DNA from: Candidatus Thorarchaeota archaeon
Lineage (GTDB): Archaea; Asgardarchaeota; Thorarchaeia; Thorarchaeales; Thorarchaeaceae
Reading direction: 5' to 3'
Length of the DNA stretch: 46,379 nt
NCBI GenBank assembly: GCA_048884965.1
Contig: JBHLQH010000027.1
Coordinates: forward strand, 1-46,379
Below, piece by piece: positions 5,229-26,684 of this stretch; the stretch's first letter is position 1; each line of letters begins with the position of its first letter. Both the position numbers and the translations under genes were made by a program. The notes beneath the pieces are model-generated. The model worked only from the letters and a program-made list of their open reading frames with translations. It was not told the DNA's origin and made no database searches.

Positions 5229-5252
5229 GTAATATTGAATGGGGATAGCTTC

Positions 5253-5690
5253 ATGAGTGAGATAACCGATAGGCCACGGGTGATAGGCGCAATTAAGACA
5301 TGTTTATCTAAAGCATTCGATAGTGTTCAGGACGCAATGGATGCGTTAGATGCGATTGCAGATGGTTCAGTTGGAACAGGGATGACACCACTAATCGGTG
5401 GTTATGCGATGCCTGATCCTAAGGAAAAGTATAGGTCTGCTTTGATTGACATAGATTCAACTGAGAAGGCATTGAAACCTCTCGTAAAACGGGTCAGTGA
5501 TGGTCGTGTAAATAAATCCCATTTTCAAAGCGATGAAGCAATGATTATTCTAAAGGATATCGCTGAATTTGAATATGATATCCTACTTGCCAAACTTCAA
5601 GAGAAGACAGGTAGAGAGAGCGTTTGGTACAGGCTTCGCGAATTGTCCGAAAAGATTGAGAGAGTCTATAAGTTAGTTTCAAAAGAGTAA
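5253..5690 (+). CDS. Hypothetical helical protein
   Basis: Uninterrupted ORF with protein-like composition; probable start MSEITD at ATG 5253 (the track starts at TTG 5235). Confidence 0.65.
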   Translation: MSEITDRPRVIGAIKTCLSKAFDSVQDAMDALDAIADGSVGTGMTPLIGGYAMPDPKEKYRSALIDIDSTEKALKPLVKRVSDGRVNKSHFQSDEAMIILKDIAEFEYDILLAKLQEKTGRESVWYRLRELSEKIERVYKLVSKE

Positions 5691-5758: not shown

Positions 5759-6448
5759 ATGAGGAAAGGGTGGTATCTGTCTTTGAGTCTACAATCATCT
5801 GAACGAATCGAAAAGCAATTGCAAAGAGCCAAGAACATTCTCATTCAGACAGAAGATACAATTGGGAGGATTAAGACATCACTTCAACCCACTGAGCAAT
5901 CGCTAATGTTGAAGGAGTTTAAGACAAGAACTGTTCTTGATCCTGGCGAATCAAAGGTTGTTCTGTGTTTGGAGGAAGAACTAGCGATATCAAAAGCGTT
6001 TAGCAAAGCTCTCTCGAAGATGGATGGCAAGAAACCCACACTTGTAAAGATACCTGAAGAAAGCAACTCCAGGCTTACAAACCTCACTGTAGCACGTATG
6101 ATACCTTCAGAGGTTCTTGCAAAAGAAGACGGTCAGGTTATAGTAGTAAATGTTCAGAAAGAAAGGATGTTGAAACATCTAGAGAATTCGAGAACAGTTA
6201 TCATTGGAGATCGTTACTCTCTACAATACAAAGATACAGTTCAGCGGTTGAGTAAAGCTTTACAGAAATTGGAAATCTCTGTGATAACAGACATAGGGTT
6301 ACATGGAGGAGGCTCATTGACATTCGAGCTTGTGAGAACCCTTGGAATGAGGCCCAAATCCACAGTTCTTGAAATGACACTAAGCTGTTCGGTGGCAGAC
6401 AATTCGGAGTCGCTTCGTCGGATAATTGAGGCACTTCTTTCGCTGTAG
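5759..6448 (+). CDS. Hypothetical protein; C-terminal half resembles a degenerate N-formylglutamate amidohydrolase (Zn-exopeptidase) fold
   Basis: TVIIGDRYS...RLSKALQKLEISV...HGGGSLT...VLEMTLS parallels the FGase pattern DIxxGtRxg...L..aL...gy.V...pf.GGyit...aiQiEi, but the metal-ligand His/Glu are missing. The stop directly abuts the next ORF. True start may be TTG 5783. Confidence 0.5.
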   Translation: MRKGWYLSLSLQSSERIEKQLQRAKNILIQTEDTIGRIKTSLQPTEQSLMLKEFKTRTVLDPGESKVVLCLEEELAISKAFSKALSKMDGKKPTLVKIPEESNSRLTNLTVARMIPSEVLAKEDGQVIVVNVQKERMLKHLENSRTVIIGDRYSLQYKDTVQRLSKALQKLEISVITDIGLHGGGSLTFELVRTLGMRPKSTVLEMTLSCSVADNSESLRRIIEALLSL

Positions 6449-6457
6449 GTGAATCTA

Positions 6458-9400
6458 GTGAGTGAGAAACCAACAACAATGAAAGAGATGCAGTTGCCTT
6501 TTCCACACGGCATGGAAGTTGAACTACAAGTCATTAAGAGAGATGGCTCATGGATAAAGGGAGAAGAGGTCCTAGAGGTCTTTGACAGACTTGTAGCAAA
6601 TGCAATATCATTACTTGAGAAGAGAATTCGTGTATCACCAGTTCCGTCTGTCAAAAAGAAGTACCGTAGATCAACTCAGACGGAGGAAGGAGAACGAGGT
6701 TCTAGGGTTGTTTCATCGTATGAGGACCCGCATGGAGAAGTCAAGGAGTTCACTCTTGTGGGGCATGACCCCAATGTTACCAGTCTGACCTGGATTCTAG
6801 AAATCGCAACACCTCCATGCACCACTCTTGAGGAACTAGCATGGTGGGTTCAATCCTTGATTGCGATATCCTATGAATCCATTCCGAAGGATGCTAATAT
6901 TACTCTTATCTCAACAGGACTCAATCCAGCACAAGAATATCTGAAGAATCTCTCATTCGGTGAACATCATCATTTCTTGGGTCCTGATACTTCTGAGAAG
7001 GTAAGAATTGGTGTCTACAATATGGTACGGAACTTTGTGCCACACATCATTGCATTGACTGTCAATTCACCTTTTGAGAACAAGAGAACGACAGATGAGG
7101 TATGGGTTGACGATGATGGAAAGACACGAGCACCGAAGTGCAAAAGATCCATTCGTTTAGTCAACAACACTACTCAACTAGGACCGACCAATGAGTTCGA
7201 GTTTATTCCATATCTCGAGAAGCCTGATGAAGAGGGCTTCGCTCGCCATGTTAACCGAAGTTATGCAAGAATGGTCGACCTCTATCCATTCACTCGTTTG
7301 CAGACCATTGAACTAAGAGTGAGTGATACACAGCTTTCAATCCCTCGAAGAATAGCAATCGCTCTCCTCCTACAAACATTATCATTGAAAGCCAAGAGGA
7401 TGATTGAGAGTGGTCAAGAAATTCCGGATGTTGGTGCCAGTTCCCTAGCTGCAAACAGAGAATCAGCTGTTGAAGCAGGTCTTTGGGGACCTTTTAGACC
7501 AGCAAAGGAGAATCCGGATTCTGAATTCATTAAAATCTACAACAGGCAAATCAATGATGATGGAAGCATCAATGAGAAGAAGCGAAATCGGTTTATGGGA
7601 GATGCCATTAACTCAATGCTCTACATCATACGTGAAGAACTGGAAGAGCTCGATTTAATTGATAATCCTTTCATGCAACCGATACTAGTATCAATATATG
7701 GTAGCGAGTTCTTTGATGCAAAAACCACTGGAGCAGATTTCCAGCTTGATGTCTATGCAAAATCTGAACTGAATCTGGTTGTTCTTCTCAGAAAACTATC
7801 TGAGATAACGAGAGAATGCTGTATCAATTGGCTATATGATCCACTTGAAGGAACACCACAACTGCCCACTTGGTTGTGTTGGTGGAAAGGCATCGAACCT
7901 GAGATTGTTACAGACAAAGAGAGAATATTCGCGGGTCAACGGGCTCATGTGTCTATCTCGATTCGAAATGCTCTTGATAAAGCAGTAGAAGATTTGACCT
8001 TGACTTGCACCATAGAAGATTCTGACAGACATGTCGTTGAACGCAAACTGATTCCTATTACCAGAATAGAATCGGGAGAGATATTCATCGAACATCTCGA
8101 ATTTGATACTTCTAAAGGCATTCCTGCTTACAACATCCTGGCTGCTGTTAGCTTAGCAGGACAGGAAGTTCATGTTTCAGGATCCATCCAGACCTTTTGG
8201 ACAAAGGCAGCTATACGACCTACTACAACAACGATATTCGCAGATGGTGCTACTCAAATTCCGTTCTCCGGAGAGATAGAAACAAGCTACCCAGAAAGCG
8301 AATTTCTGGCTGTCAAAGTCAGCGTACTATCGCCTAGTAGGGAAAAGATTCTTGCAGAAGTAGAGCAGCCACTTTCTGTTGAAGCTGGCGGAGTAATCTC
8401 CTTCAAGAATAAAGACTTTCCACCTCTTGTTGTACCAGACGACCTTTCAGAAGGTGTAGAACGTTGTGTTTTGAAAATCAGTCTTACTGATTCAGACGGA
8501 GAGGAAGTAACAGCCAATACTTCTAAACCGTTCTATATTGGGTTTGTTAGAAAGGGACCAAAGATAATTCTCGAGGCAAATATCAAGGAAAACTATAAGC
8601 CAGGAGAAACAATTGTTGGGAAAATCGAATTGAAGGCCAAGGGTGAATCCATAGCCAAGGATGCATCGGCATCAATCATCTTCCTAGCAGATTCTGGAAG
8701 GAGACATTCGATTACAACTCTACCTGTCAAAGACCTTGCAAAGGGAGCGATTGAATTCGAGTGGAGGATACCACCTATACACTCTGAGAATACAGCAGAA
8801 CGTACAGGAGTAATCAGAGTTGAACTACTGGATGGAATCGAAGTTATCAGTTCGACGCAATCGGAGAGATTCAAATTAGAGCATGTTGGTGTGCGGATAA
8901 GTATCGATTCACTTCGGATTCCATCTGCAACTGAGGTCGGAGCTAAGATCACCGGATGGCTGCGAGTCCGTCGAAATACAGAATCAGGTGAAAAGGCGAC
9001 TCTTGATTTGACATTCAGGTATCCTGATGGGACAGAAATTCATGCTCTATCGCAACCCATTAGGCAAAGTAGAAACCTATCGGTAGCCTTTGGACCAATA
9101 GAGGTTCCTAGCTCAGAATCAGGTGAGCGTTTCGACCAAGTAGATTTGGAAGCAAAGATATCCTATGGCGGAATAGTCATCGACTCCCGAGTCGAAACAT
9201 TGCGCCTAGATGGAGTCGAAGAGCCACATCTTGTCCGAATATCATTTTCTGGAGTACCTAGCTTTGTTACACCAGATGAAACCTTGCATTCGACTATTCA
9301 CGTTTCGAACCTCTCCAGTGAGGAGGTCCCCTGTATGCTTGCAGCCCAGCTTGACACAATAAAGGGAGCTATTCCAATCTGGCAAAAGGAAATCACGTTG

Positions 9401-9907
9401 AAACCAAAGCAAACTGGGCTCTACGCAATAAGCATCGATATTCCACTATCAATCGAGATGAGTACAGCATATCTAATGGCAAAGGCGACAACCACAAAGG
9501 GAGTAACTCGAGGATCAAAGCGTCTCAAGATCAAAGCTGTTGAGGAAGCGCATTTCCATTTCAGATATATGATAAAGGATCTGAATGGAGTAGAGATCCC
9601 AGGCTTAGTGCCAAGAGTGACTCCAATCAAATTGATTGTCATCGGAAAAGCAACAACAAAGGCACTTGATGAAGTAAAGATTCTTCTACGAGTAATGTCT
9701 CGAAGAAAGGTCATCAAGCTCTTCGAGATTAACTCGATGTCTATCAAGAAAAGAAAGGATAGCGAGTTCGAAGTAGAGATCCCATGGACAACTCCCTCCG
9801 TCGATATGGTTACTGGCTATTACTTAGAAGCGCTTGTAGAACAGGGAGGCCAGATTCTACCGGATAGGGCGGTAGAACAAACATCAAAGCAGTTCACAGT
9901 GTACTGA
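6458..9907 (+). CDS. Glutamate-cysteine ligase family 2 (GCS2/YbdK-like carboxylate-amine ligase) fused to ~6 C-terminal beta-sandwich repeats
   Basis: GMEVELQV, LEIATPPC, GEHHHF, ALTVNSPF and TIELRVSDTQ match GCS2 motifs (GxExEl, EixTp, hHvH, AlsaNSPF, tiEvRxxD). The remaining ~670 aa is beta-rich. Start GTG 6458 follows an AGGTGA SD. Confidence 0.85.
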   Translation: MSEKPTTMKEMQLPFPHGMEVELQVIKRDGSWIKGEEVLEVFDRLVANAISLLEKRIRVSPVPSVKKKYRRSTQTEEGERGSRVVSSYEDPHGEVKEFTLVGHDPNVTSLTWILEIATPPCTTLEELAWWVQSLIAISYESIPKDANITLISTGLNPAQEYLKNLSFGEHHHFLGPDTSEKVRIGVYNMVRNFVPHIIALTVNSPFENKRTTDEVWVDDDGKTRAPKCKRSIRLVNNTTQLGPTNEFEFIPYLEKPDEEGFARHVNRSYARMVDLYPFTRLQTIELRVSDTQLSIPRRIAIALLLQTLSLKAKRMIESGQEIPDVGASSLAANRESAVEAGLWGPFRPAKENPDSEFIKIYNRQINDDGSINEKKRNRFMGDAINSMLYIIREELEELDLIDNPFMQPILVSIYGSEFFDAKTTGADFQLDVYAKSELNLVVLLRKLSEITRECCINWLYDPLEGTPQLPTWLCWWKGIEPEIVTDKERIFAGQRAHVSISIRNALDKAVEDLTLTCTIEDSDRHVVERKLIPITRIESGEIFIEHLEFDTSKGIPAYNILAAVSLAGQEVHVSGSIQTFWTKAAIRPTTTTIFADGATQIPFSGEIETSYPESEFLAVKVSVLSPSREKILAEVEQPLSVEAGGVISFKNKDFPPLVVPDDLSEGVERCVLKISLTDSDGEEVTANTSKPFYIGFVRKGPKIILEANIKENYKPGETIVGKIELKAKGESIAKDASASIIFLADSGRRHSITTLPVKDLAKGAIEFEWRIPPIHSENTAERTGVIRVELLDGIEVISSTQSERFKLEHVGVRISIDSLRIPSATEVGAKITGWLRVRRNTESGEKATLDLTFRYPDGTEIHALSQPIRQSRNLSVAFGPIEVPSSESGERFDQVDLEAKISYGGIVIDSRVETLRLDGVEEPHLVRISFSGVPSFVTPDETLHSTIHVSNLSSEEVPCMLAAQLDTIKGAIPIWQKEITLKPKQTGLYAISIDIPLSIEMSTAYLMAKATTTKGVTRGSKRLKIKAVEEAHFHFRYMIKDLNGVEIPGLVPRVTPIKLIVIGKATTKALDEVKILLRVMSRRKVIKLFEINSMSIKKRKDSEFEVEIPWTTPSVDMVTGYYLEALVEQGGQILPDRAVEQTSKQFTVY

Positions 9908-10181
9908 TAGTTTATATCTGAAGAATATTTTACGGTTGTATAACACTCCGTTTTGGTAATAGTAAGCCCAAATACGCGCGATTTGGAGAAAAAAGTATCA
10001 AATTAGGCGATGTATAATTCGACGATATATACAGTCAAGACCAAAGGTATAATAGGGGCAAAAAGAGCCCTTTGTATTAATCGGAGCAACCAACCAACTC
10101 CTGATTTACAATCATAGAATAATCGATGATACCCCATATTTGACAGCCATAATATAGTATTGAGAGACGGAAGTGAGAATT

Positions 10182-11114
10182 ATGTTGGAGTTGCTAACAA
10201 ATAGCGTAGTTTCAGGACTAATCGTAATGTCCATCCTCGGAGCCCTATCGTATAAGCTCCACTTTGTAGATGTATCTGGCTTAATCAGTGCATATGTTGT
10301 TGGAGTAACGGTATGGTATACCGGAGGAGTGGCAGCATTTACGATCCTTTTATTCTTCTTCCTAGCTTCAGGAGTTGCAACGAAATTCAAGTACAAAGCA
10401 AAAGCTAAACAGAATCTTGCTCAAGAGGGAAAGGGAAAGAGATCTTGGAGGAATGTCTTCGGTAGCGGAGTCATTCCAATGTTCTTCTCAATAGGCATTT
10501 TCATCTTTAGTCCGACAGGACCATTCAACTTGACCACAGATCCATTCTTCTCATTTGCTATGTTTGGAGGCTTTGTAGGATCTGTTGCTACAACTACAGC
10601 AGATACATTGGCAAGTGAGATTGGAGTTTTCAGTAAGAGCAAACCCCGCTTGATCACCAATCTTCGTCGTAAGGTTCCAAGAGGAACAATTGGAGCAGTT
10701 TCTCTTCTTGGTGAAGGGGTTGCAGTATTTGCTGGTATAATGATTGGCGTACTAGCTCTCATCTTTGCGTTCGCAGCACCAAGTATGATTCCTGTCTATA
10801 ACATCGAACAACTCTTCATCATCTTCCCGTTGTCAGTTCTTACAGCTTTCATCGGATGCAATCTAGACAGCTTATTCGGTGCGGTACTTCAGAATAGATT
10901 TGTTTGTGAGATATGTGGTGCTGTCACAGACAAAGAATTCCATTGTGACTATGAAACCAAGTATGTTGGTGGTTTCAGAAGCTTCACAAATACCTACGTG
11001 AACTTCGGTTCCTCAGGCATGGGAGCGACATTAGGAGTCGTCCTTGGGGCGGGACTATTTGTGTGGATTCTAGGAGGACTATTCTTCTGGATTCTTGCCT
11101 CATCTAGCAACTAG
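10182..11114 (+). CDS. DUF92/TMEM19 (VTE6-like) integral membrane protein
   Basis: LFFFLASGVATKFK, RSWRNVFGSG, ADTLASEIG, VPRGTIGAVSLLG, DSLFGAVLQ and C-terminal CxxCG...HC are DUF92 hallmarks. Confidence 0.9.
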   Translation: MLELLTNSVVSGLIVMSILGALSYKLHFVDVSGLISAYVVGVTVWYTGGVAAFTILLFFFLASGVATKFKYKAKAKQNLAQEGKGKRSWRNVFGSGVIPMFFSIGIFIFSPTGPFNLTTDPFFSFAMFGGFVGSVATTTADTLASEIGVFSKSKPRLITNLRRKVPRGTIGAVSLLGEGVAVFAGIMIGVLALIFAFAAPSMIPVYNIEQLFIIFPLSVLTAFIGCNLDSLFGAVLQNRFVCEICGAVTDKEFHCDYETKYVGGFRSFTNTYVNFGSSGMGATLGVVLGAGLFVWILGGLFFWILASSSN

Positions 11115-16134: not shown

Positions 16135-17355
16135 TTGTCAGAAACTCGAAGAATGTTGCTGGACTTCGAAACTGATGAAGTCGGACAAAAGGCACGTAAT
16201 GATTCCAAAGTACGAAAAGCTCTAATTAAGGCTCTCACTGATACTTCTGATATTGTAAGGGAACGCGCTCTTATTGCAACTATTGAATTGGGAGACCCTA
16301 CAATCGTCACCGACGTCGCAAAAGCATTGAAGGATGACGATGATGAAGTACGAATCGCAGCTGCAGAGTCTTTGGCATACTATCAGCAACCTTCTACAAT
16401 ACCTACCCTCCTTGAAGGTCTAAAGGATTCCAATACATGGGTAAGATCACACTGTGCAAATGGCCTATCCAAATTAGTTAGCGGTCCAATTTGGGCTCGA
16501 GTCAAGGAGGAAGACGTAGATAGAATCTTGGCGGATTTTCCAGAGATGGATGAAGAACAGATTAGATTGTTCTTAACTAATCTCAAAATCAGGCAGAATT
16601 CTCTTGACAAATTCATGCGGTGGAGAAAAGCCAACTTCGAAGTTGACATAGATACTTCATCTCTTGAGGAGATGGAATCGAAACCTCTCATTCTTGAAGG
16701 TGTTGAACTAGAACCACCAGTGAAATCGAAACCAGCGACTGGAATTTCAGATGATGTTGAACGAATCTTGTCGGAGTTGCCAGCCGACCTTAGAGAAACA
16801 TTACCTGAGGAGGATCTTCGCAGACTGACACCAGCGACAGCAAGAGAACTCGTTGATTCACTACTGGCTTCCTTTACAGATGTTGGAAGAGAAGATTTGG
16901 AGAAAGAGGAACCTGCCAAGAAGAAGAAGGTAAAGGTAACGAAAGTAAAGAAGGTCAAGAAGAAAACAGGACCAACCAAAGAAGAACTGCTTGACCAGAT
17001 TCCTGACGAAGTCAAATCACAAGTTCCACCAGAAGTACTAGCGGACCTTTCACTTGAAGATTTGGAGGCTCTAATATCATCAGGAAGCGATAGCGCAGAT
17101 CTATTACCTGATATCACAGATGAGGAAGTCGTTGAAGAAGAGCCTAAGCCAGAGAAGAAAGAAGTAGAGAAAAAGAAGAAGGTTGTCAGTGGAGATGATC
17201 GCCTTCAAATCCTTATTGATAAGTTTGGAGAAGAAAAGGCAGAGATACTTCGAAACGTTCCTGAAGAGATGCTAGCAGGGATTCCTGATGACCAAATCGA
17301 AGAAATGGACATAGACGCTCTAAAGGACCTTGCTGATGCATTGGAGCCAAGGTAA
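16135..17355 (+). CDS. HEAT/PBS-lyase repeat protein with acidic and Lys-rich C-terminal helical repeats
   Basis: ALTDTSDIVRERAL, ALKDDDDEVRIAAAESL and GLKDSNTWVRSHCANGL are HEAT repeats; TTG start with GGAG upstream. Confidence 0.85.
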   Translation: MSETRRMLLDFETDEVGQKARNDSKVRKALIKALTDTSDIVRERALIATIELGDPTIVTDVAKALKDDDDEVRIAAAESLAYYQQPSTIPTLLEGLKDSNTWVRSHCANGLSKLVSGPIWARVKEEDVDRILADFPEMDEEQIRLFLTNLKIRQNSLDKFMRWRKANFEVDIDTSSLEEMESKPLILEGVELEPPVKSKPATGISDDVERILSELPADLRETLPEEDLRRLTPATARELVDSLLASFTDVGREDLEKEEPAKKKKVKVTKVKKVKKKTGPTKEELLDQIPDEVKSQVPPEVLADLSLEDLEALISSGSDSADLLPDITDEEVVEEEPKPEKKEVEKKKKVVSGDDRLQILIDKFGEEKAEILRNVPEEMLAGIPDDQIEEMDIDALKDLADALEPR

Positions 17356-17361
17356 CGAGTA

Positions 17362-18651
17362 TCACTCGCTACCTCGTATCACAATCGCGAATTCGCTTGC
17401 TAGTCGTCCATACCATTCAAGTAGATCTCGCATGTTGTCTACGTGTCGATAGGTTCCATTGCCATATTGAGAAAGTGCCAGCATCAATTCCTCATCCAAT
17501 TCGCTCCTTTCACCAAGTCCGATGGTATACATAACGAAGCGATTTCTATCTGGAAAACGTTCTTTCATAATCTTGAGAGGAGGGGGACCAGCTGTTGTCA
17601 TTCCATCTGTCAATAGGATTAGCATCGTTGGCTTACTAGGGTCTCCGAAGGCTTCTAAGACTTCACCGGCCTTAGCCAAAGCATTTCCCATATTCGTCAG
17701 AGTCCCTCCCTCTTCAACCTTATCAACTACATGAGTGCTAATAATTTGTAGACCAAGAGCCTTCTCACGTCCGGTACATTCAACAAATGGTTGAACCTCA
17801 CCTGTATCAGCGTTGAGAAATGTCATCTCAGCAACTTCCTTCTCGAACGTAATGACTCCTACCTTCTCACCATATCCACGACCAACCTTCTCAGCTAGGT
17901 AAAGCAATACAGCCATAGCTGCTGCTTCAGCTCTACTTACATTTCTTCCCTCGTCGAAACGATCTAAGAAGGCTTGCACTTCAGGATTATCTCCTGCAAG
18001 ATCCTTTAGACCCTCACGTGCATGAGCAATATCCTGAACAGGAACATCAGTTGTTTTCATGGAGCCACTAGTATCGATGCACAGGATTGCATTGAATGGA
18101 GTGGCAATACCAATTGTCTTGAACTGGTAGCCGGTCTTTTCTTTTAGAGCTTCGAACGCCAGCTTGGCAAAACTCTTTCCAGTGAGATTAGGACGAGTGT
18201 TCATAATTTCGACCTTTGCATCCAACTCGGGCCAATTGAAGGACATGCCAGGATATACAAGGCGACCACCAATTAGCTCTTCCAAGGAAGCGACTCTCTC
18301 AGCCGCCTTAGTAACCAAGTCCTCAGTATTAGCATCCTCTGACAGTGGTTTTAGACCAAACTCGACGTATTCCAGTGCAATCATGTCGCGTTCATAGAGT
18401 GTGACTTCGACAGTATCACCTTCCATAAGTAGTGATGCTTCCAGAACCAATGTATCAACGTAGATTTGGTCTTTCGGGACATCGTCACTCTTACGAATCT
18501 CTGCAGCTCCCCAAAAGCTACTCTCAGGATCTTCAAAGATCACAATTGAACCAATCTCTGCATCAAGAGATTCTGCAGTCTTTGGATTCATAGTGGCATA
18601 GCCTCGAAGATCGCCTCCATCCACGATCTCTAGATTTACTCTTCCGACGAT
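17362..18651 (-). CDS. CDC48/VAT N-domain-like + VWA domain protein (intact MIDAS)
   Basis: DLRGYATMNPKTAESLDAEIGSIV...QIYVDTLVLEASLLMEGDTVEV resembles the CDC48 double-psi barrel. VWA motifs ILCIDTSGSM, TNMGNAL, LILLTDG, YTIGLG. The track start is GTG 18624; I infer ATC 18651. Confidence 0.8.
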   Translation of the reverse strand: MVGRVNLEIVDGGDLRGYATMNPKTAESLDAEIGSIVIFEDPESSFWGAAEIRKSDDVPKDQIYVDTLVLEASLLMEGDTVEVTLYERDMIALEYVEFGLKPLSEDANTEDLVTKAAERVASLEELIGGRLVYPGMSFNWPELDAKVEIMNTRPNLTGKSFAKLAFEALKEKTGYQFKTIGIATPFNAILCIDTSGSMKTTDVPVQDIAHAREGLKDLAGDNPEVQAFLDRFDEGRNVSRAEAAAMAVLLYLAEKVGRGYGEKVGVITFEKEVAEMTFLNADTGEVQPFVECTGREKALGLQIISTHVVDKVEEGGTLTNMGNALAKAGEVLEAFGDPSKPTMLILLTDGMTTAGPPPLKIMKERFPDRNRFVMYTIGLGERSELDEELMLALSQYGNGTYRHVDNMRDLLEWYGRLASEFAIVIRGSE

Positions 18652-18722: not shown

Positions 18723-20228
18723 TTATCCGAATAGCTTAGGAACATTATCCAGTAATGCTTCAAGGTCCTTTTCATACCTTGTATTTTTCGATAGTTCTTC
18801 AATGACCGATTCGCCAACCCTATGTGTGGCGTAATTCGTCGTTCGTAGAGCATTTTCACCGCTGGTCCTCACAGATGCAATAGTGAGGATATCTCCAGGA
18901 TTCTCTCTAACCCAAAGGTGAATTTCATAGTTTGCTTCCTTATTTTTCATTGTAAGGATATATGAATCAAGATGGACTCCGTTATATCCTCCTTCTTGAA
19001 CAGTGCGAATACGCGGCCATGTATGTCGAGGGGGTATCATTAGGTCAAGTGAGGATAGATCCCATTCCTTCTCATGCATTGTTTTGATCAAAGCATCTTC
19101 AAGTGCTTTTCTTGAGCTGCCATTGTTATTGGGACAGGCTAATTGCTTTGACGACCTCTTGCTTTCTAGACTAGAATTGTATGGCTTTTGCACTAATGAG
19201 AGTGTGTTGCCACCAAGAATACGTTGTACATCTGAAAGATCCCCTGGGAATGCTCGAGAAAGTGATGCAATAATGAGTTCAGCGGCTTGAACGGATAGAA
19301 AGCTGTAATCAGTAGCAAAAAGAAGGCTCTCAGACCATCTCTTTGTGGATTGGATTCTTTCTGAAGCCATCTCGAACAAGAGCGGGATATCCTGACCATG
19401 CAACGTAGATGTGTCAGCAGAGAAGATAGGATCGTTGAGAATGTCATATAATTTTGGAGAACCGGGGCTCATGCCGGCGTGAGCAAGGATAATGCGAAGG
19501 TTTCCAATTGCCTGAGAGTACTGTGGTTCCTCTCTCATGATTTTCACTAGATGTCTAATTCTTGTGACTGTGCGTATGTTTCGAGTGTCGAATAATACTG
19601 GAATCCTTAGTTGAGCTGCTCTATACACAACTCGACGGACAAGATCATCCTCTAATTCATCTATGAATAACTGTGCCAATGGATGTAGCTTTAGCCCTCG
19701 GAGTCCAAGATCAAGGATAGCCCTATCAAGCTCTCTGACAGCAAGATTGGCATCACCATTCCGACCATCCATGGGGTCAACCCGCGCAAATCCGATGAGT
19801 CTGGAAGAATGAGGAGCTCGAGTCGTCCATCCCGCTATTTTATCGTTTGATATTTTGAATGAAGGTGATCCTTCAGGACCTTGCTTGGCATAATCGTCAG
19901 AGTAAGGAAAAACAATAGTTCTGTCCACTAGCCAGCCATGTTTCATTCTCTCCCAGCTATCTCGACTTGAAAACAGATTTGAAACAAAGGGAGTTGGAAT
20001 TATCTGTATCGGCTCGAATAACAGTTCATCATTACCTATGGCTTTCTCAGCAATACGTTTCATTTCGAACCATAGAAGCTGATAGAAGTCATATGCACCT
20101 CCAGGTGTATTCCTATGGCTCTTCTCGCGCCCCATATGATGATGTGCGTCTACCAAATAAAGATGAAAGAGATCATCCTTTTTGATAGATTGTTCTGGGA
20201 TATCTTCAATGGCTCGCACCACGAGCAT
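18723..20228 (-). CDS. Amidohydrolase (Amidohydro_2-like TIM barrel) with C-terminal extra domain
   Basis: VDAHHHMG, GLRGLKLHP, ILAHAG, LLFATDY, RILGGN. Confidence 0.85.
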   Translation of the reverse strand: MLVVRAIEDIPEQSIKKDDLFHLYLVDAHHHMGREKSHRNTPGGAYDFYQLLWFEMKRIAEKAIGNDELLFEPIQIIPTPFVSNLFSSRDSWERMKHGWLVDRTIVFPYSDDYAKQGPEGSPSFKISNDKIAGWTTRAPHSSRLIGFARVDPMDGRNGDANLAVRELDRAILDLGLRGLKLHPLAQLFIDELEDDLVRRVVYRAAQLRIPVLFDTRNIRTVTRIRHLVKIMREEPQYSQAIGNLRIILAHAGMSPGSPKLYDILNDPIFSADTSTLHGQDIPLLFEMASERIQSTKRWSESLLFATDYSFLSVQAAELIIASLSRAFPGDLSDVQRILGGNTLSLVQKPYNSSLESKRSSKQLACPNNNGSSRKALEDALIKTMHEKEWDLSSLDLMIPPRHTWPRIRTVQEGGYNGVHLDSYILTMKNKEANYEIHLWVRENPGDILTIASVRTSGENALRTTNYATHRVGESVIEELSKNTRYEKDLEALLDNVPKLFG

Positions 20229-20373: not shown

Positions 20374-22995
20374 ATGATTGTTGCTGAGGATCGAATTACA
20401 AATGAAGTAGTAAGATTCCTAGTCATCGATGCCTATGCCAAATTGGGTGTTGTTCAATACGGCTCGGATATTCAGACCTTCGATTCACAGCGAATGCTTA
20501 GATATTACGCACTCGTCGAGAACCAGCTTTTCGACTATGCTAGTCGTTATCCAGAATCATTTCAATATCTTCCAAGAAGAGCCTATTCGTATCTGTCAAA
20601 GCCACCTTTACTAGGAGATCTCTCAACTAGCTTGGCGACAACCAGCGAAACAAGGTGGTTCTCGGATCAATTCGTAATACATCCCTTGACGGAAATATCT
20701 GCAAAACCACTTCCACGCTATCAGCAGAAAACAAACATTGAATCATGCTTTAGATGGACAACGCAATCTGAAGACGCAATAAGAATGTATAATGTCCTTG
20801 ATCTTGATGTAGAAACGTCTGAAAGAATAAGATGGGCTGTGTCAATTGATGCAAGGAATCTCTCAAGAAGTGTGAAAGGAGGCGTGCGAAAGGCTCTCCT
20901 AGACGCAGTCACTGAACGACTACCAATCTTCATTCGCCTTGAAGATAAGGATGAGATTTCCTCCTTATTGGAATGGCTTGTCCTCATTAAGGAGTCAGGT
21001 CACTCTAGACCTTCGATACTGCTCTCAGTAAAGGAACAAAGAGGATGGGAGAACGAAATACTGAAGCTCCTACAAATGCCAGGAGTACACTTGCTCACAT
21101 CAGGTGCGTCAATTGTTTCCCTTTCAACGATTATAGGTGGATTGAAAGGCCAACTCGAATCAGAGCTTTGGTCAGAAAAGCTGGTCTTTGCGAGCTCATA
21201 TCCAGAAACCCAGATGGGCGATAGCATCACTGAGATTCTGAGTTTCCTGTTGAGTAAGAACCTCGGAGCGGGGCGAGATGAGATTCAGAATATCTTGGCT
21301 GGCAATTTGATTAGAATATTGTCCCCGATCTCGAAACAGCTTCGAATGGAGTATAGTGAATCTTCACTCTTTGCGGAAGGGATTTTTGGAAAAATTGCTT
21401 TACGTGAATTCCTTCGACTCATAAGATTGCTCAATGCACAGATGCAGATTCAGATTATCTCAGCAGATATCATTCCAGATAGTGCTGAAGGGCAAATTGA
21501 GCTCAACTCAGTCATTCTTACAACTCGTAATCTGAAATCCAAGTTTGATAGGAGGTTCATCCTTCAAAAAGAAAGAGACGAATCCTTGAGAATAGTAGGA
21601 TGGAAGAAGATGTTTGACGATCTCTATTCATCGAAGAATTGGATAGCTCTTAGAACCCAGATACGAGCTTCTGATAGAGGGCCATCCTTGGACGCTCCAA
21701 GTCATATTTCTACATTCAATAGGAGAGTTTTGGATATCCTTGGCATAAGAGATGCTACATCTGTCATCTCATCGTTACATTACCAAATCCAAGAGAACTC
21801 ACTTGAGGTTGGAAAGATTTCTCTTTGCCAAGAGGATATCAGAGCGATTGGCGTAAAAGAAGGAGAGGTTGTAACTGTATTAGATGCTGAATCTGATCAT
21901 TATTGGGGAGCGATGGTTGTTCAGACATCTGAATGCCCTACAAGAACGGTTGGCCTCCCTAGTGCGGAACTCCGAGTCTATGGCCTAAGTAATGCATCTC
22001 AGATAGATTTGGTGAAGTATAATGATGAAATCATAGATAGTAAGAGTATACTCCTTACTTATCGGAATACTCCGGGGTATACGGATTCGGAGATATCTGC
22101 TTATTTGCATATGGCAAAGGGAGAGATTGAGTCGTCAATCCAGAGCAAAATAATAGGGATTGGAACTCGTTTTGTTACAGCGAATGGACTCGAACTAGAA
22201 GTGAAGAGAATAGATCCGAATGTTCGCAAGGGTCAGCTAGTTTGTGCCAGAGATTCAGATGTTGAGATTCTCCCAATAGAATTTCTGAATGAACTGAATC
22301 TGATTTTGGTCGCTGCCAACGGAAACCAAATGATGGTCCGAGATGCCAGCGTTCGAAACCCGAGGGCAATTCAAAAAACCTTGGAAACACTCTCCAACGA
22401 CTTACCAGAGATTGCCACTTTCCTCTATGGCATACGAGGAACTCTATCCAGGTGGAATGTTGCTGCAACGATTATCCTTGAGATGGTCAATAGCTTCAAG
22501 CACAATAAATCAGAGGGGAAATTCGGACTCGTTTTTGTAGATCGACTCCCACATAAATTTACAATACAGAAGAACCTAGAAACTCAGGAATACATTAAAT
22601 TCAATTCAGATATGCAGAATGATGAGATATTCAAATCACTTGTTTATTCCGTCATCGACGCAGGAGAAATATCTGATGAGCCAACTGACTCGAAAGCACT
22701 TTTCAGGTCTGCTGCTGAATTAACTGAGGATTTTGGAGTAGAAAGACCCACACTAATGCTTCTGATGCTTTCCGAAATGGATGATATCGATGATATAGCT
22801 CCTTACTTACAGGTGCTTAACTCGACAAGAAATCTCAAACTTCTCATTATTGGCATTGGAAACCAGTTTGGAAATCTACACCGTCAAAAAATCAAGAAGA
22901 TGCTAGATATCGATGTCCAATTCATCAAGGAGTATTCTTTATTCGATCTTCGGGGTCTTCTCATATCCAAAATACGGGAACTTTGCCATTCTTAG
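20374..22995 (+). CDS. Fusion of degenerate amidohydrolase + CDC48-N-like + degenerate VWA domains
   Basis: IDAYAKLG, LVFASSYP and QNILAGN are degenerate amidohydrolase motifs. ISLCQEDIRAIGVKEGEVVTV...YWGA is CDC48-N-like. NLILVAANGNQM...PTLMLLML...LLIIGIG is a VWA without MIDAS. Confidence 0.75.
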   Translation: MIVAEDRITNEVVRFLVIDAYAKLGVVQYGSDIQTFDSQRMLRYYALVENQLFDYASRYPESFQYLPRRAYSYLSKPPLLGDLSTSLATTSETRWFSDQFVIHPLTEISAKPLPRYQQKTNIESCFRWTTQSEDAIRMYNVLDLDVETSERIRWAVSIDARNLSRSVKGGVRKALLDAVTERLPIFIRLEDKDEISSLLEWLVLIKESGHSRPSILLSVKEQRGWENEILKLLQMPGVHLLTSGASIVSLSTIIGGLKGQLESELWSEKLVFASSYPETQMGDSITEILSFLLSKNLGAGRDEIQNILAGNLIRILSPISKQLRMEYSESSLFAEGIFGKIALREFLRLIRLLNAQMQIQIISADIIPDSAEGQIELNSVILTTRNLKSKFDRRFILQKERDESLRIVGWKKMFDDLYSSKNWIALRTQIRASDRGPSLDAPSHISTFNRRVLDILGIRDATSVISSLHYQIQENSLEVGKISLCQEDIRAIGVKEGEVVTVLDAESDHYWGAMVVQTSECPTRTVGLPSAELRVYGLSNASQIDLVKYNDEIIDSKSILLTYRNTPGYTDSEISAYLHMAKGEIESSIQSKIIGIGTRFVTANGLELEVKRIDPNVRKGQLVCARDSDVEILPIEFLNELNLILVAANGNQMMVRDASVRNPRAIQKTLETLSNDLPEIATFLYGIRGTLSRWNVAATIILEMVNSFKHNKSEGKFGLVFVDRLPHKFTIQKNLETQEYIKFNSDMQNDEIFKSLVYSVIDAGEISDEPTDSKALFRSAAELTEDFGVERPTLMLLMLSEMDDIDDIAPYLQVLNSTRNLKLLIIGIGNQFGNLHRQKIKKMLDIDVQFIKEYSLFDLRGLLISKIRELCHS

Positions 22996-23246
22996 TGCTT
23001 GGAAAGTCGTTCAATGGCAGACAGTTGTACATCTAGCTCATTTGCTCGAATCTCAACATCATCTATGAGCATCTGGATCTCATCAAGTAGTTTCACAATC
23101 CTCGCATTCGTATCGTCTTCAAGGGTTTCCCGTTCCTTGCTCATTTCGAGAATAACTCCTTCAATCTTTCGAATTCTTTTGTTCACATCTATAAGATTCT
23201 CCAACGACTCAAGGAAGAACGCGATATCCGTTTCCAAAGTACTCAC
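22992..23246 (-). CDS. Small coiled-coil protein
   Basis: 84-aa heptad-rich ORF; its GTG start overlaps the upstream TGA stop (GTGA coupling). Confidence 0.7.
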   Translation of the reverse strand: MSTLETDIAFFLESLENLIDVNKRIRKIEGVILEMSKERETLEDDTNARIVKLLDEIQMLIDDVEIRANELDVQLSAIERLSKH

Positions 23247-24424
23247 CCGATTTCTTCACAGATTTTTGCAATTCTCTTCTCAAGAAGGCTTAGACGTTCA
23301 TGCAAAGCCTCTAGCCGGTCAACTGTTTCTTTGACTTTGGTTTCAATATGATTTGCCTTACCCTGAGGCTCCTCTTCCTTCTTAGTACTTAGGCGTTCGA
23401 GTTCACCCAAAATGGCCTCAGCCCTCTCTATTCGCCTCATTGTATCATTTACGTCAACATCTCGAAGAATCCATTCCACCTTCTGAAGCAATTTTCTATC
23501 CTTCGAAGAGATCTTCTTTTGGTCATCATCCTTAATGGGGAGGAATTCTTCTTGTACTATGACCTCTTTGGTTTTGCTTCCTGGAACTACTATCTCTTCA
23601 GATTTTGCCCATAATGGGACGAGAACTTGGGTAGCAAATGTCTCAAGTTGCAGTCCCTCAGAAATTAGAGAAGTCATTAGATCCCTAGGACCATCCCAAA
23701 GGAAGGTTTCAATCACCGCATTTCGCAGGAGAAAACAAGCAGCAACAGGGTCTCGAACTAGGAGATTCTCAATCATTTCCAGTACCCAGCTACTAAAGAG
23801 AAGTGAGAGAGCAACGCTTTCTTGAAGAGCACCTTGTTTGAATAGAAGGATTTCGTCATCATTTGCATTAAGCAGGTCGGGAATCCAAGCCCGAGGGTTT
23901 GCCCAATTCGCAGGCATTCGAAGTGTAAATCCATGAAAGATGTCTCTATCGGCACTTTGCTCTATGATGTGCTCTATATAATCAAATTGTGGCTCGCTGA
24001 ATTCTCCATCAAGCTCTATTCCTAAATCGTACTTCAGCACCAGCCGAAGGATATCATGAGGAGAATAGCCTGCGACTCTGAAAGCTATAAAATCCCTGAC
24101 AACAGCATCGTTCTCCTTACTGACCTTGAAAGCGACTACGAACTTCTCCTCAAACAATCCACACTCACCGTAGATGATGATACCTGAATCGCCACTATCA
24201 GATAATCCCCTATCAATTACTGAACGTATTGTTGAACTCAATGGAATGATGTAATCAACCTGATTTGGCTTGGAGCGTAGAGAGCCACTCAAACCTTTTG
24301 ACACAATCCCTGTTTCTAGCCATCCGGGCTTCAGTTGATTGCCAATGATTCGTACAGCAAGATATCCCTTTACTTCATTGTTCGAATACATTGATTGAAG
24401 GCGCGTAGTGAAGTTTTCTGACAG
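23243..24424 (-). CDS. Hypothetical protein, alpha/beta N-terminus and C-terminal coiled coil
   Basis: Long ORF in an operon with VWA genes. The track start is ATG 24391; an in-frame CTG at 24424 lies 8 nt after GGAGG. Confidence 0.7.
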   Translation of the reverse strand: MSENFTTRLQSMYSNNEVKGYLAVRIIGNQLKPGWLETGIVSKGLSGSLRSKPNQVDYIIPLSSTIRSVIDRGLSDSGDSGIIIYGECGLFEEKFVVAFKVSKENDAVVRDFIAFRVAGYSPHDILRLVLKYDLGIELDGEFSEPQFDYIEHIIEQSADRDIFHGFTLRMPANWANPRAWIPDLLNANDDEILLFKQGALQESVALSLLFSSWVLEMIENLLVRDPVAACFLLRNAVIETFLWDGPRDLMTSLISEGLQLETFATQVLVPLWAKSEEIVVPGSKTKEVIVQEEFLPIKDDDQKKISSKDRKLLQKVEWILRDVDVNDTMRRIERAEAILGELERLSTKKEEEPQGKANHIETKVKETVDRLEALHERLSLLEKRIAKICEEIG

Positions 24425-24427
24425 ACT

Positions 24428-25543
24428 TTATACCTCCGATTTTATCCAATTATCAAGTTGATTTTTCGCGTGATCAAGTTGAGCAACTCGATCAATCGTT
24501 ATTAGTATCCCGTTTCCGTTTGCAGCAATTGCTTGGAGGAGGGAATCATCAATTCTAGATCCTATACCAACACATGCAAGATATATCCCTTCAGTTTCAG
24601 ATAATAAGTTTCTGACAATTGGAACTGGATTGATACCATGTGAATATGAGCCACTGGAAAATAAAATGATGAAGGTTGGTACAGGATTTCGCTCATAGGA
24701 TCTCTTTGCTATTGCGACTCCAGTTTCTAAAGCCAGTGTCAAATCAGATGCATTCCCCTTATGATCATCTACACAGTGCAAAACCCATTTCTCGTATTGC
24801 TCAATTACATCATCAGTCAACATGATTGTATCATCTTCTGAGAAGTCTGATACATTTGTAGAAAACGCAAGAGGCGCGAAAATAACATTCTTGCCAGTGT
24901 ATTCTCGAGCCAACGCAATTACTAAACTCTGAGAGATTTCATACCTAGCTGATGGACCAGAGTCATTACTTTCCAATGAGATGTCCCTTTTTTGTGATGA
25001 TGCACCGATCTCCATGAGTGTACACAGATTGAAGTTATCTGCAGATCGTGCTGCGCGAAGATAGATTTTCATGACCTTTCTCCATGCAACTCTTGCTGCG
25101 TTGAGGTCATTTGACAAGGGGACCATCGCAGAAGGTGTGACTGCAACTCCAAGCTCTTCAAGGTAGAACGTCTTGTCTGTTTCCAGAATGAGCCCATCAA
25201 TATAAGCTTCCAAATCCTCGATCTTTTGAGAGAGAGCTTCAACAATTCGACTTGCATCAAGTGCCCTCTTGGAGGAAATGGATAGCACCAATTCCGTGCA
25301 TATTGGAATATCATCCTTGACTCTTTCGATAGCGATCAGATCATCTGATTTCAGATCTAGAAAATCAAAGTGACGCTTGTCAAGAATGATTTGCTCCTCA
25401 AGGACACGATCGTTCTTCTTTAGAGTTGCGAAAACAGATGCTTTCTCAGCTATCAGCTTGACTGTCCCAGTTGGCATATCAAGGTTGTCTGACACATAAG
25501 AGATGCCTCTCTGATTTCGACCTCTTATGGCCTGAAGCTTCAT
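24428..25543 (-). CDS. CDC48-N-like + degenerate VWA protein (paralog of 17362-18651)
   Basis: QIILDKRHFDFLDLKSDDLIAIE and LEAYIDGLILETDKTFYLEELG align with the paralog. VWA FNLCTLMEIGAS, FIILFSSG, LACVGIG...LLQAIAANGNG has lost the MIDAS residues. Confidence 0.75.
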   Translation of the reverse strand: MKLQAIRGRNQRGISYVSDNLDMPTGTVKLIAEKASVFATLKKNDRVLEEQIILDKRHFDFLDLKSDDLIAIERVKDDIPICTELVLSISSKRALDASRIVEALSQKIEDLEAYIDGLILETDKTFYLEELGVAVTPSAMVPLSNDLNAARVAWRKVMKIYLRAARSADNFNLCTLMEIGASSQKRDISLESNDSGPSARYEISQSLVIALAREYTGKNVIFAPLAFSTNVSDFSEDDTIMLTDDVIEQYEKWVLHCVDDHKGNASDLTLALETGVAIAKRSYERNPVPTFIILFSSGSYSHGINPVPIVRNLLSETEGIYLACVGIGSRIDDSLLQAIAANGNGILITIDRVAQLDHAKNQLDNWIKSEV

Positions 25544-25556
25544 TTGATATTACCGC

Positions 25557-26684
25557 CTAGTACACACGAGTTGTGTATATTTTGCTAGCAACTGCCTTTG
25601 ACCCGTAGTAGACCTCTACTTTGAGGCTTGCTTTCTCCTTCGATTCTGTCATTGGAACAAGATTTAGCTCTAACTGTCGGTCATCTTTCGGACCTATCTC
25701 ATGCTGCTCGTTTGTTATCTCGGATACACCATCTTCTGTAGCTAGGGTTACTATCACACGGATTCCTATCACACTAGAACTTGGATTCTTCACACGTAGC
25801 CGATAGTTGAAAGCCCTTCCAGCAATTAGTGCATCAGGCACATCTCCCAAAGAAACCGCAATGCCGATCTTATCTGCAGTGAGCGGTCGTCCTCTTGGCC
25901 ATCGTGGAATTCTCTCAAGTTCAAGCAATCTTGAAAGAGAGATCTTCATCTCTCGAAGTTCCATTCCGAGCTGAGAAGCAGCAGTACCAATATCAAAGGA
26001 GCCATCATTTGACTCATAATAGTCCAGCACTCTGCGGTCGGATTCAATCAAGTCGCTCATGCCTTCTAATATCTTTAGAATGGCTTCTGGAAGTTGATGG
26101 GCTTGTGATAATGAGAAATAATTCCCATTCTCGATGGACTCAGCTATTCTTCTGAAGGATTTTTCCACAAGGGGATTGCATCCTATGATAAAAGCAAAAA
26201 CGGTAGAACCAAAGTCAGTAACTAGATTCTGTACTTCCTTGCAAGGATCATATCCCTTTGGGCATCCATCTGGAAAGTAATCGTCACTCAAAGAATTATA
26301 TTGTCGCCCGTGGGGAGGTGCATCACCAACCAGGAGTAGTACTTTGTATGCGTCCTTATCCCATGAGAGCTTCGTTCTAGCATCATATAACCCATCTGCA
26401 ACAGCTTCTGGTGTGTCACCACCTTCAGATGGTCTCAGTCGAGATATCTCATCATGTACTTCCTTAATTCGCCCAGAGAAGTCGAATACTCGAGTCACGT
26501 ATGTCCTGTCCTGCGGAGGATGATCTCTATAAGATACAATACCAAAACGAATTGTAAGACCTTCAGTCTTCGTTACAATCTTGTCAACAATATCGAACAA
26601 TGAGTCTTTCACTGCACGTATATCATCTTTCATTGATCCAGTGGTATCGACCACAAATGCTACGTCTATCTTAGCTGTGTGAAT
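25557..26684 (-). CDS. VWA domain (DTTGSM/GGDxPE/GDAPPH type) + HTH + C-terminal Ig-like domain protein
   Basis: IDVAFVVDTTGSM, YRDHPPQD, GGDTPEAV, LLVGDAPPHG, HTH-like IGTAASQLGMELREMKISLSRLLE, and a beta-sandwich tail. The conserved first strand lies upstream of the track GTG (26654), so I infer an ATT start at 26684. Confidence 0.85.
   Translation of the reverse strand: MHTAKIDVAFVVDTTGSMKDDIRAVKDSLFDIVDKIVTKTEGLTIRFGIVSYRDHPPQDRTYVTRVFDFSGRIKEVHDEISRLRPSEGGDTPEAVADGLYDARTKLSWDKDAYKVLLLVGDAPPHGRQYNSLSDDYFPDGCPKGYDPCKEVQNLVTDFGSTVFAFIIGCNPLVEKSFRRIAESIENGNYFSLSQAHQLPEAILKILEGMSDLIESDRRVLDYYESNDGSFDIGTAASQLGMELREMKISLSRLLELERIPRWPRGRPLTADKIGIAVSLGDVPDALIAGRAFNYRLRVKNPSSSVIGIRVIVTLATEDGVSEITNEQHEIGPKDDRQLELNLVPMTESKEKASLKVEVYYGSKAVASKIYTTRVY

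Follow-up and report, generated by a model that had tools for sequence, protein, structure and literature searches.

What does a carboxylate-amine ligase act on when six beta-sandwich domains stand behind its catalytic domain, and with what does it work? This question is raised by a gene at positions 6458 to 9907 of contig JBHLQH010000027.1 (assembly GCA_048884965.1, Candidatus Thorarchaeota archaeon), of which positions 1 to 46,379 (the window) were analysed. A sequence-only reading of this gene had described an intact GCS2-like catalytic domain fused to about six beta-sandwich repeats, and had taken the repeats to suggest a macromolecular substrate. Our central finding is that the ligase gene, a gene for a Cdc48_N-vWA protein and a gene for an Amidohydro_2 enzyme are an Asgard gene set that is inherited, duplicated and lost together. 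We found no paper on this architecture or module in the literature; a review records that some GshA InterPro matches fall in Asgard archaea (PMC7278568).

6458..9907, plus strand: ligase gene, a single intact open reading frame (ORF) of 1149 amino acids (aa) plus stop
6485..7867, plus strand: YbdK/GCS2-type carboxylate-amine ligase domain, aa ~10-470, with its motifs kept

The ORF starts at GTG 6458, with GTG 6449 and ATG 6479 as alternatives (an uncertainty of at most 10 codons), and stop codons occur throughout the opposite strand of the gene. The G+C content of the region, 42-45%, is ordinary for the window, in which an Rfam search detected no RNA elements. The catalytic motifs are E20/E22 (EVELQ), E115 (LEIAT), H170/H172 (GEHHH), NSPF at 203-206 and E285/R287/D290 (ELRVSD). 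Each of the residues E20, E22, E115, H170, H172, N203-F206, E285, R287 and D290 is invariant or at least 90% conserved among 38-46 homologues, and by analogy with gamma-glutamylcysteine synthetase structures they are the putative Mg, ATP and acyl-phosphate ligands. The catalytic metal, ATP and phosphate signatures (ExE, LE, GxHxH, ExR) are all present and match those of YbdK in every block. With the single protein as query, PF04107 reaches 20.7 bits against a cut-off of 21 (26.2 bits, over the cut-off, when neighbouring frame segments are summed), TIGR02050 reaches 49.8 bits against 176.4 (E 3e-13), and a search of PDB sequences with the whole protein returned nothing meaningful. YbdK is reached via the family profile only: a profile from 45 members finds E. 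coli YbdK (1r8g) with E 5.5e-16, through the blocks PFxxGiExE, LE, FGxHxH, PHxIALsxxSPf and gTiExRvxD. An AlphaFold2 model of residues 1-480 is confident (predicted local distance difference test, pLDDT, 93.4; predicted template-modelling score, pTM, 0.94), and its nearest structures, YbdK, plant GCL and GshF, are all small-molecule ligases. The domain is therefore YbdK-type, not PafA-type. The single-domain architecture of ~370 aa is not found here, as the 1149 aa consist of a 460-470-aa catalytic domain and six beta domains. The GCS2-like domain described by the sequence-only reading is confirmed by these motifs, the profile and the model, and its statement that signal peptide and transmembrane segment are absent was also borne out. 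The gene product is an ATP-dependent carboxylate-amine (amide-bond) ligase of YbdK/GCS2 fold, located in the cytoplasm and apparently active.

The two partner genes lie downstream in the window:

17362..18624, minus strand: Cdc48_N-vWA protein, the ligase's co-inherited partner, with an intact metal-ion-dependent adhesion site (MIDAS; DxSxS...T...D)
18723..20228, minus strand: Amidohydro_2 enzyme (TIM-barrel metal hydrolase fold), the third partner, with the HxH, H, H and D metal residues kept

We searched the same 121 Asgard genomes (26 families) with ligase, vWA and hydrolase queries. Matches came from 41 genomes for the ligase and from 42 each for the vWA protein and the hydrolase, always within the same 7 of the 26 families. 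All three genes occur together in 40 genomes (40 of the 44 that have any), 77 genomes have none, and only 4 are discordant. Copy number co-varies, in that two families carry 2 ligase, 3 vWA and 2 hydrolase genes, and 6 of 17 sampled genomes of the window's own family, which are 91-99% complete, gave no match to any of the three. Since related genomes are not independent, a nominal Fisher p-value overstates the co-occurrence; despite this kinship, the joint duplication and joint loss of the three genes are clear. The genes are also linked, with a partner at most 15 kb away for 38 of 49 ligase matches and most of the other matches on short contigs. At a Jordarchaeales locus the ligase is followed by Cdc48_N-vWA and Amidohydro_2 genes, and at an Odin locus by a vWA gene. 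One Heimdall genome has vWA, a 399-aa gene, ligase and Amidohydro_2 in this order on one strand, a Sigyn locus has the Cdc48_N-vWA gene just upstream of the ligase, and at the locus of a giant ligase form (see below) two vWA genes and one Amidohydro_2 gene flank it. In Thorarchaeota the spacing is conserved: the partners lie ~9.4 kb downstream when counted from the ligase domain and ~7.5 kb when counted from the end of the gene. Separately, a genome of the window's family yielded a weaker ligase match only (G055:C27:82691-84103; E 1.6e-82, in a 708-aa open frame), with no vWA or hydrolase matches, and this may be a decaying remnant of the module.

The window's vWA and Amidohydro_2 genes are orthologous to the partners in other lineages (35-40% identity for the vWA protein, 34% for the hydrolase), and with MIDAS and hydrolase metal residues intact, both products look functional. 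By sequence, the nearest solved relatives of the hydrolase are ACMSD and LigW. The Cdc48N-vWA profile matches Cdc48/VAT N domains and archaeal vWA structures, and has a weak match (E 0.007) to the N-terminal region of DEPDC5 (GATOR1). Facing the hydrolase/vWA pair is an 873-aa ORF (20374-22995, plus strand) with weak similarity to both, at E 2e-4 to a Jord Amidohydro_2 enzyme and E 1e-3 to the vWA protein. It also weakly resembles proteins of 833-851 aa that are encoded close to the ligase in Odin and L006, and its sequence is consistent with a fused copy of the pair. Around the pair, a HEAT-repeat protein, two more vWA proteins and a 382-aa ORF (16135-17355, plus strand, and 23243-26654, minus strand) make up a larger vWA-rich cluster.

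The ligase gene represents, in Thorarchaeota, a ligase family that is specific to Asgard archaea. It has at least 145 full-length orthologues (about 1141-1153 aa) at 49-90% identity, and those with names are nearly all from Candidatus Thorarchaeota. Family representatives carry names from Thor, Odin, Jord, Sigyn, Loki, Heimdall, Hel and Hod archaea, and an exhaustive search of representatives brought up about 90 more clusters in which the ~470-aa ligase domain is part of a different architecture. The same six-domain tail recurs at ~30% identity in other proteins, the named ones from Odinarchaeota and 'Asgardarchaeia'; other long-tailed ligases come from Jord, Sigyn and Loki/Promethearchaeota, and tail-less ligases of 466-590 aa from Heimdall and Hel. 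There are also giant coiled-coil forms of 2200-3900 aa with the ligase domain at the C-terminal end, and forms with N-terminal extensions, among them zinc-ribbon forms and a natural vWA-ligase fusion, P0168. In a catalytic-domain tree, made by a quick method and midpoint-rooted for drawing only, the six-tail ligases lie on one side of a branch (SH-like approximate likelihood ratio test 94), as would be expected if the tail was gained once, in a clade that takes in Thor, Odin and two further lineages. The P0168 gene (8001-10889 of L013, a JGI metagenome contig) adjoins TIR, SLATT, QueC/QueF/TGT-like, Mom and several DNA methyltransferase genes, so that its neighbourhood looks like a defence island, unlike the other ligase loci.

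The tail of the window's ligase divides into six Ig-like beta-sandwich domains, as follows:

7892..8227, plus strand: beta-sandwich domain D1, aa 479-590
8228..8554, plus strand: beta-sandwich domain D2, aa 591-699, with a weak Mannosidase_ig Pfam match
8555..8887, plus strand: beta-sandwich domain D3, aa 700-810, with a weak MG2 Pfam match, homologous to D4 and D5
8888..9223, plus strand: beta-sandwich domain D4, aa 811-922, with a conserved GWLRxRRN strand
9224..9544, plus strand: beta-sandwich domain D5, aa 923-1029
9545..9904, plus strand: beta-sandwich domain D6, aa 1030-1149

A full-length model (pLDDT 85, pTM 0.52) places six all-beta domains across residues 479-1148. The repeats proposed from the sequence are therefore real, and the six opener strings by which they had been recognised, at residues 490, 593, 713, 825, 937 and 1051, fall at the first long strands of the domains. 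D3, D4 and D5 are mutually homologous by profile-profile comparison (76-93% probability), while other domain pairs gave no significant result. The Foldseek search that had been suggested for the tail retrieved MG arrays of alpha2-macroglobulin, complement and TEP proteins with E ~1e-21 but TM scores of 0.1-0.2. Arrestin, adaptin and TRAPP, which had been named as possible relatives, are not among the structure matches listed for multi-domain queries, single tail domains not having been searched alone. Homology of the tail to MG-domain or transglutaminase-type arrays is not supported. The MG2 match reaches 23.2 bits against a cut-off of 32.8, the TM scores are low and the thioester motif CGEQ is absent from the protein, which thus has neither an MG-domain Pfam match above cut-off nor a thioester domain; a relative has a weak Transglut_C match. 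Among distant Thorarchaeota the tail domains are 32-45% identical and the ligase domain 69%, so the tail evolves faster than the core. Nor can the tail be what sets the substrate class, since orthologues that lack it are accompanied by the same vWA and hydrolase genes. The tail is more plausibly a scaffold particular to its clade than a determinant of substrate class or chemistry. The macromolecular substrate that had been suggested on account of the tail consequently loses this basis, although a protein or peptide target is plausible on the grounds given below.

Directly upstream of the ligase gene is a further gene:

5759..6448, plus strand: uncharacterised ~225-aa family protein (229-aa ORF), with its stop (TAG 6446-6448) 0-30 nucleotides before the ligase start

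This family is present in 18 of the 121 Asgard genomes, and in 17 of these 18 the gene is immediately 5' of, and co-oriented with, a ligase gene encoding ~1150-1200 aa. The gene precedes the ligase gene in most of the six-tail clade, whereas no match to it was found in the 15 genomes sampled from the family whose ligases are of the short Heimdall type. It is a fourth, subtype-specific member of the gene set in some clades. No convincing family assignment was obtained for it (5 of 11 members have weak DRTGG matches). A reading as N-formylglutamate amidohydrolase was dropped, as Pfam, NCBIfam and PDB sequence searches gave no FGase match. Homology of the Thorarchaeota protein to the proteins of 229-235 aa that occupy this position in Odin and L006 is not supported, BLAST being negative and the hhalign probability 2%. 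A complex prediction for ligase residues 1-700 with the 229-aa protein returned no answer (score 0.00) and speaks neither for nor against binding. Further upstream, a 151-aa gene (5235-5690) is conserved in the second Thorarchaeota locus (59% identity); it has no family match, and BLAST against the ligase loci compared from other lineages gave none either. Downstream, a gene for a DUF92 integral membrane protein (10173-11114, plus strand) comes after the ligase gene, both in the two Thorarchaeota loci compared and in the distant lineage L007; conservation of synteny or a link in function may account for this. In Odin and in two further lineages, the second gene upstream of the six-tail ligase encodes a 770-805-aa protein with a C-terminal EAP30 (ESCRT-II Vps22/36-type) domain (L003 2944-5286, L006 4931-7240, L007 4892-7309). 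The orthologue in Thorarchaeota (782 aa, 30% identity) lies on a different contig of the window's own genome (G000:C5:46017-48329).

The reading that we favour, with evenly balanced confidence, is that the ligase belongs to an amide-ligation module with a protein- or peptide-type target, which the vWA/Cdc48N protein recruits and whose ligation product the hydrolase processes. The ligase would convert a carboxylate into an acyl-phosphate and join it to an amine; this carboxylate would most likely belong to free Glu or to a glutamate-type side chain. Ligation would take place on a protein, peptide or protein-bound target recruited by the vWA/Cdc48N protein, and the hydrolase-fold enzyme would process or remove the product. 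The sandwich tail would serve as a docking or spacing scaffold that does not determine the chemistry. A protein- or peptide-linked target is somewhat more likely than a free metabolite because of the protein-binding partners and the fusions to very large non-enzymatic proteins. Several observations weigh against this proposal. YbdK-type enzymes of known activity act on small molecules (gamma-Glu-Cys), and ligase-plus-hydrolase pairs are also typical of the transient gamma-glutamylation of small amines. The existence of tail-less orthologues means that the tail says little about the substrate, and in Thorarchaeota the distance to the partner genes places the three genes outside a single operon. 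Finally, characterised Amidohydro_2 members, like the nearest solved relatives of our enzyme, are mostly decarboxylases and similar enzymes, not amide hydrolases, so an 'eraser' role for the hydrolase is conjecture.

Some of these points would suit a small-molecule pathway, in which the ligase amide-links (for example, gamma-glutamylates) a small amine such as a thiol amino acid, a polyamine or another metabolite and the Amidohydro_2 enzyme catalyses a later step, much as in Puu-type or ergothioneine-type transient gamma-glutamylation; the role of tail and vWA protein would then be limited to assembling or localising the enzymes. Pairs of a ligase and a hydrolase-fold enzyme are common in metabolism, the closest structures are small-molecule ligases throughout, and the Glu, ATP and metal motifs are kept. 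In both Thorarchaeota loci compared, the ligase gene also adjoins an Opp/Dpp-type peptide ATP-binding cassette transporter, but this neighbourhood was not seen at the ligase loci of the other lineages examined. Moreover, the protein-binding modules, vWA-MIDAS and Cdc48_N, show as tight a link to the ligase as the hydrolase does, and a ligase domain at the C-terminus of 2200-3900-aa proteins, or fused to vWA or zinc ribbons, would be unusual for a metabolic enzyme. We therefore regard such a pathway as rather unlikely, though a serious competitor. The more specific idea of an ordinary gamma-glutamylcysteine synthetase that makes a low-molecular-weight thiol, like haloarchaeal GCS2-type GshA, with the tail as decoration, can draw on the database annotation ('glutamate-cysteine ligase family') and on the ligase being the sole PF04107 match in its genome, where no GshA-type (PF04262) gene was found. 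It is nevertheless improbable because of the phyletic pattern and the sub-threshold family scores: the ligase is unmatched in 19 of the 26 Asgard families and in the same 6 of 17 same-family genomes that lack vWA and hydrolase matches, and lies far under the equivalog/subfamily cut-offs (TIGR02050, 49.8 against 176 bits). It would also leave ~110 aa of conserved insertions and a conserved 670-aa tail unexplained. GSH-S_ATP matches in the genome were discarded as a sign of glutathione, being generic ATP-grasp matches whose control was also positive in archaea without glutathione.

The strongest form of the sequence-only reading, which had named PafA as a member of the fold, would be PafA-type tagging: a small protein tag would be joined, through the glutamate at its C-terminus, to lysines of targets that the Ig-like arm holds. 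PafA and the ligase do share a superfamily fold, but PafA is not the nearest structural relative, the fold being much closer to YbdK. No PF03136 match was found anywhere in the genome, ligase ORF included (a control genome was positive), and no Pup (PF05639) match in this 95.7% complete genome. Nor was a conserved small tag gene identified, the upstream 225-aa and 151-aa proteins not ending in Glu or Gln. The strict form of the claim thus fails, and a PafA-like ligase is decidedly improbable. Least plausible of all, and in our judgement very improbable, is a non-ligase role, whether as a Dop-like hydrolase with ATP as cofactor or as a structural or regulatory subunit without turnover. Against it, strong purifying selection has kept every ligase-type metal and phosphate residue, and it is the ligase domain, not the tail, that stays most alike among distant Thorarchaeota.

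Returning to the favoured amide-ligation module, a bolder extension, which we put forward as speculative and on the unlikely side, is a third prokaryotic protein-conjugation chemistry in Asgard archaea, independent of ubiquitin-like systems and pupylation. Here, a YbdK-derived ligase would be the writer of a glutamyl or isopeptide-type amide mark on proteins, the Cdc48N-vWA protein its reader or presenter via the MIDAS, and the TIM-barrel hydrolase its eraser, with the six-sandwich arm and the ~225-aa subunit positioning the substrate in Thor and Odin. No known prokaryotes are more closely related to eukaryotes than Asgard archaea, and conserved Asgard-specific gene sets are candidates for early regulatory machinery. 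In the present set, a ligase fold well known from small-molecule enzymes has been remodelled into large multidomain proteins and tied to vWA-MIDAS, Cdc48_N and a hydrolase-fold enzyme. With a protein as its target, the module would constitute a new system of reversible protein modification; with a metabolite, it would point to an Asgard-specific compound not yet known. The module is well defined and can be approached experimentally with recombinant proteins.

Among known systems, the closest are the YbdK/GCS2 enzymes (PF04107, TIGR02050; YbdK 1r8g, Salmonella 1tt4; haloarchaeal GshA, mycobacterial EgtA). The ligase differs from YbdK in a catalytic domain that is ~110 aa longer, through insertions conserved across the family at about aa 28-110 and at 205-283, the latter with an RSIRLxxNxxQxGP block. 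In contrast to YbdK/GCS2 enzymes in general, it adds the 670-aa six-sandwich tail, scores, as a single protein, under the trusted cut-offs of their families, is genomically tied to vWA and Amidohydro_2 proteins and is confined to a subset of Asgard archaea. The tail recalls the C-terminal beta-barrels of transglutaminase and factor XIII and MG-domain arrays, but with TM scores of 0.1-0.2 and a root-mean-square deviation of 6-9 Å or more, figures within the range of generic tandem sandwiches, and it is without the CGEQ motif, TED and CUB domains of alpha2-macroglobulin and complement. With PafA and Dop, the ligase and depupylase of pupylation, the ligase has the GS/GCS superfamily fold in common, and the further likeness is conceptual: here too, an amide ligase would work alongside recognition and removal factors.

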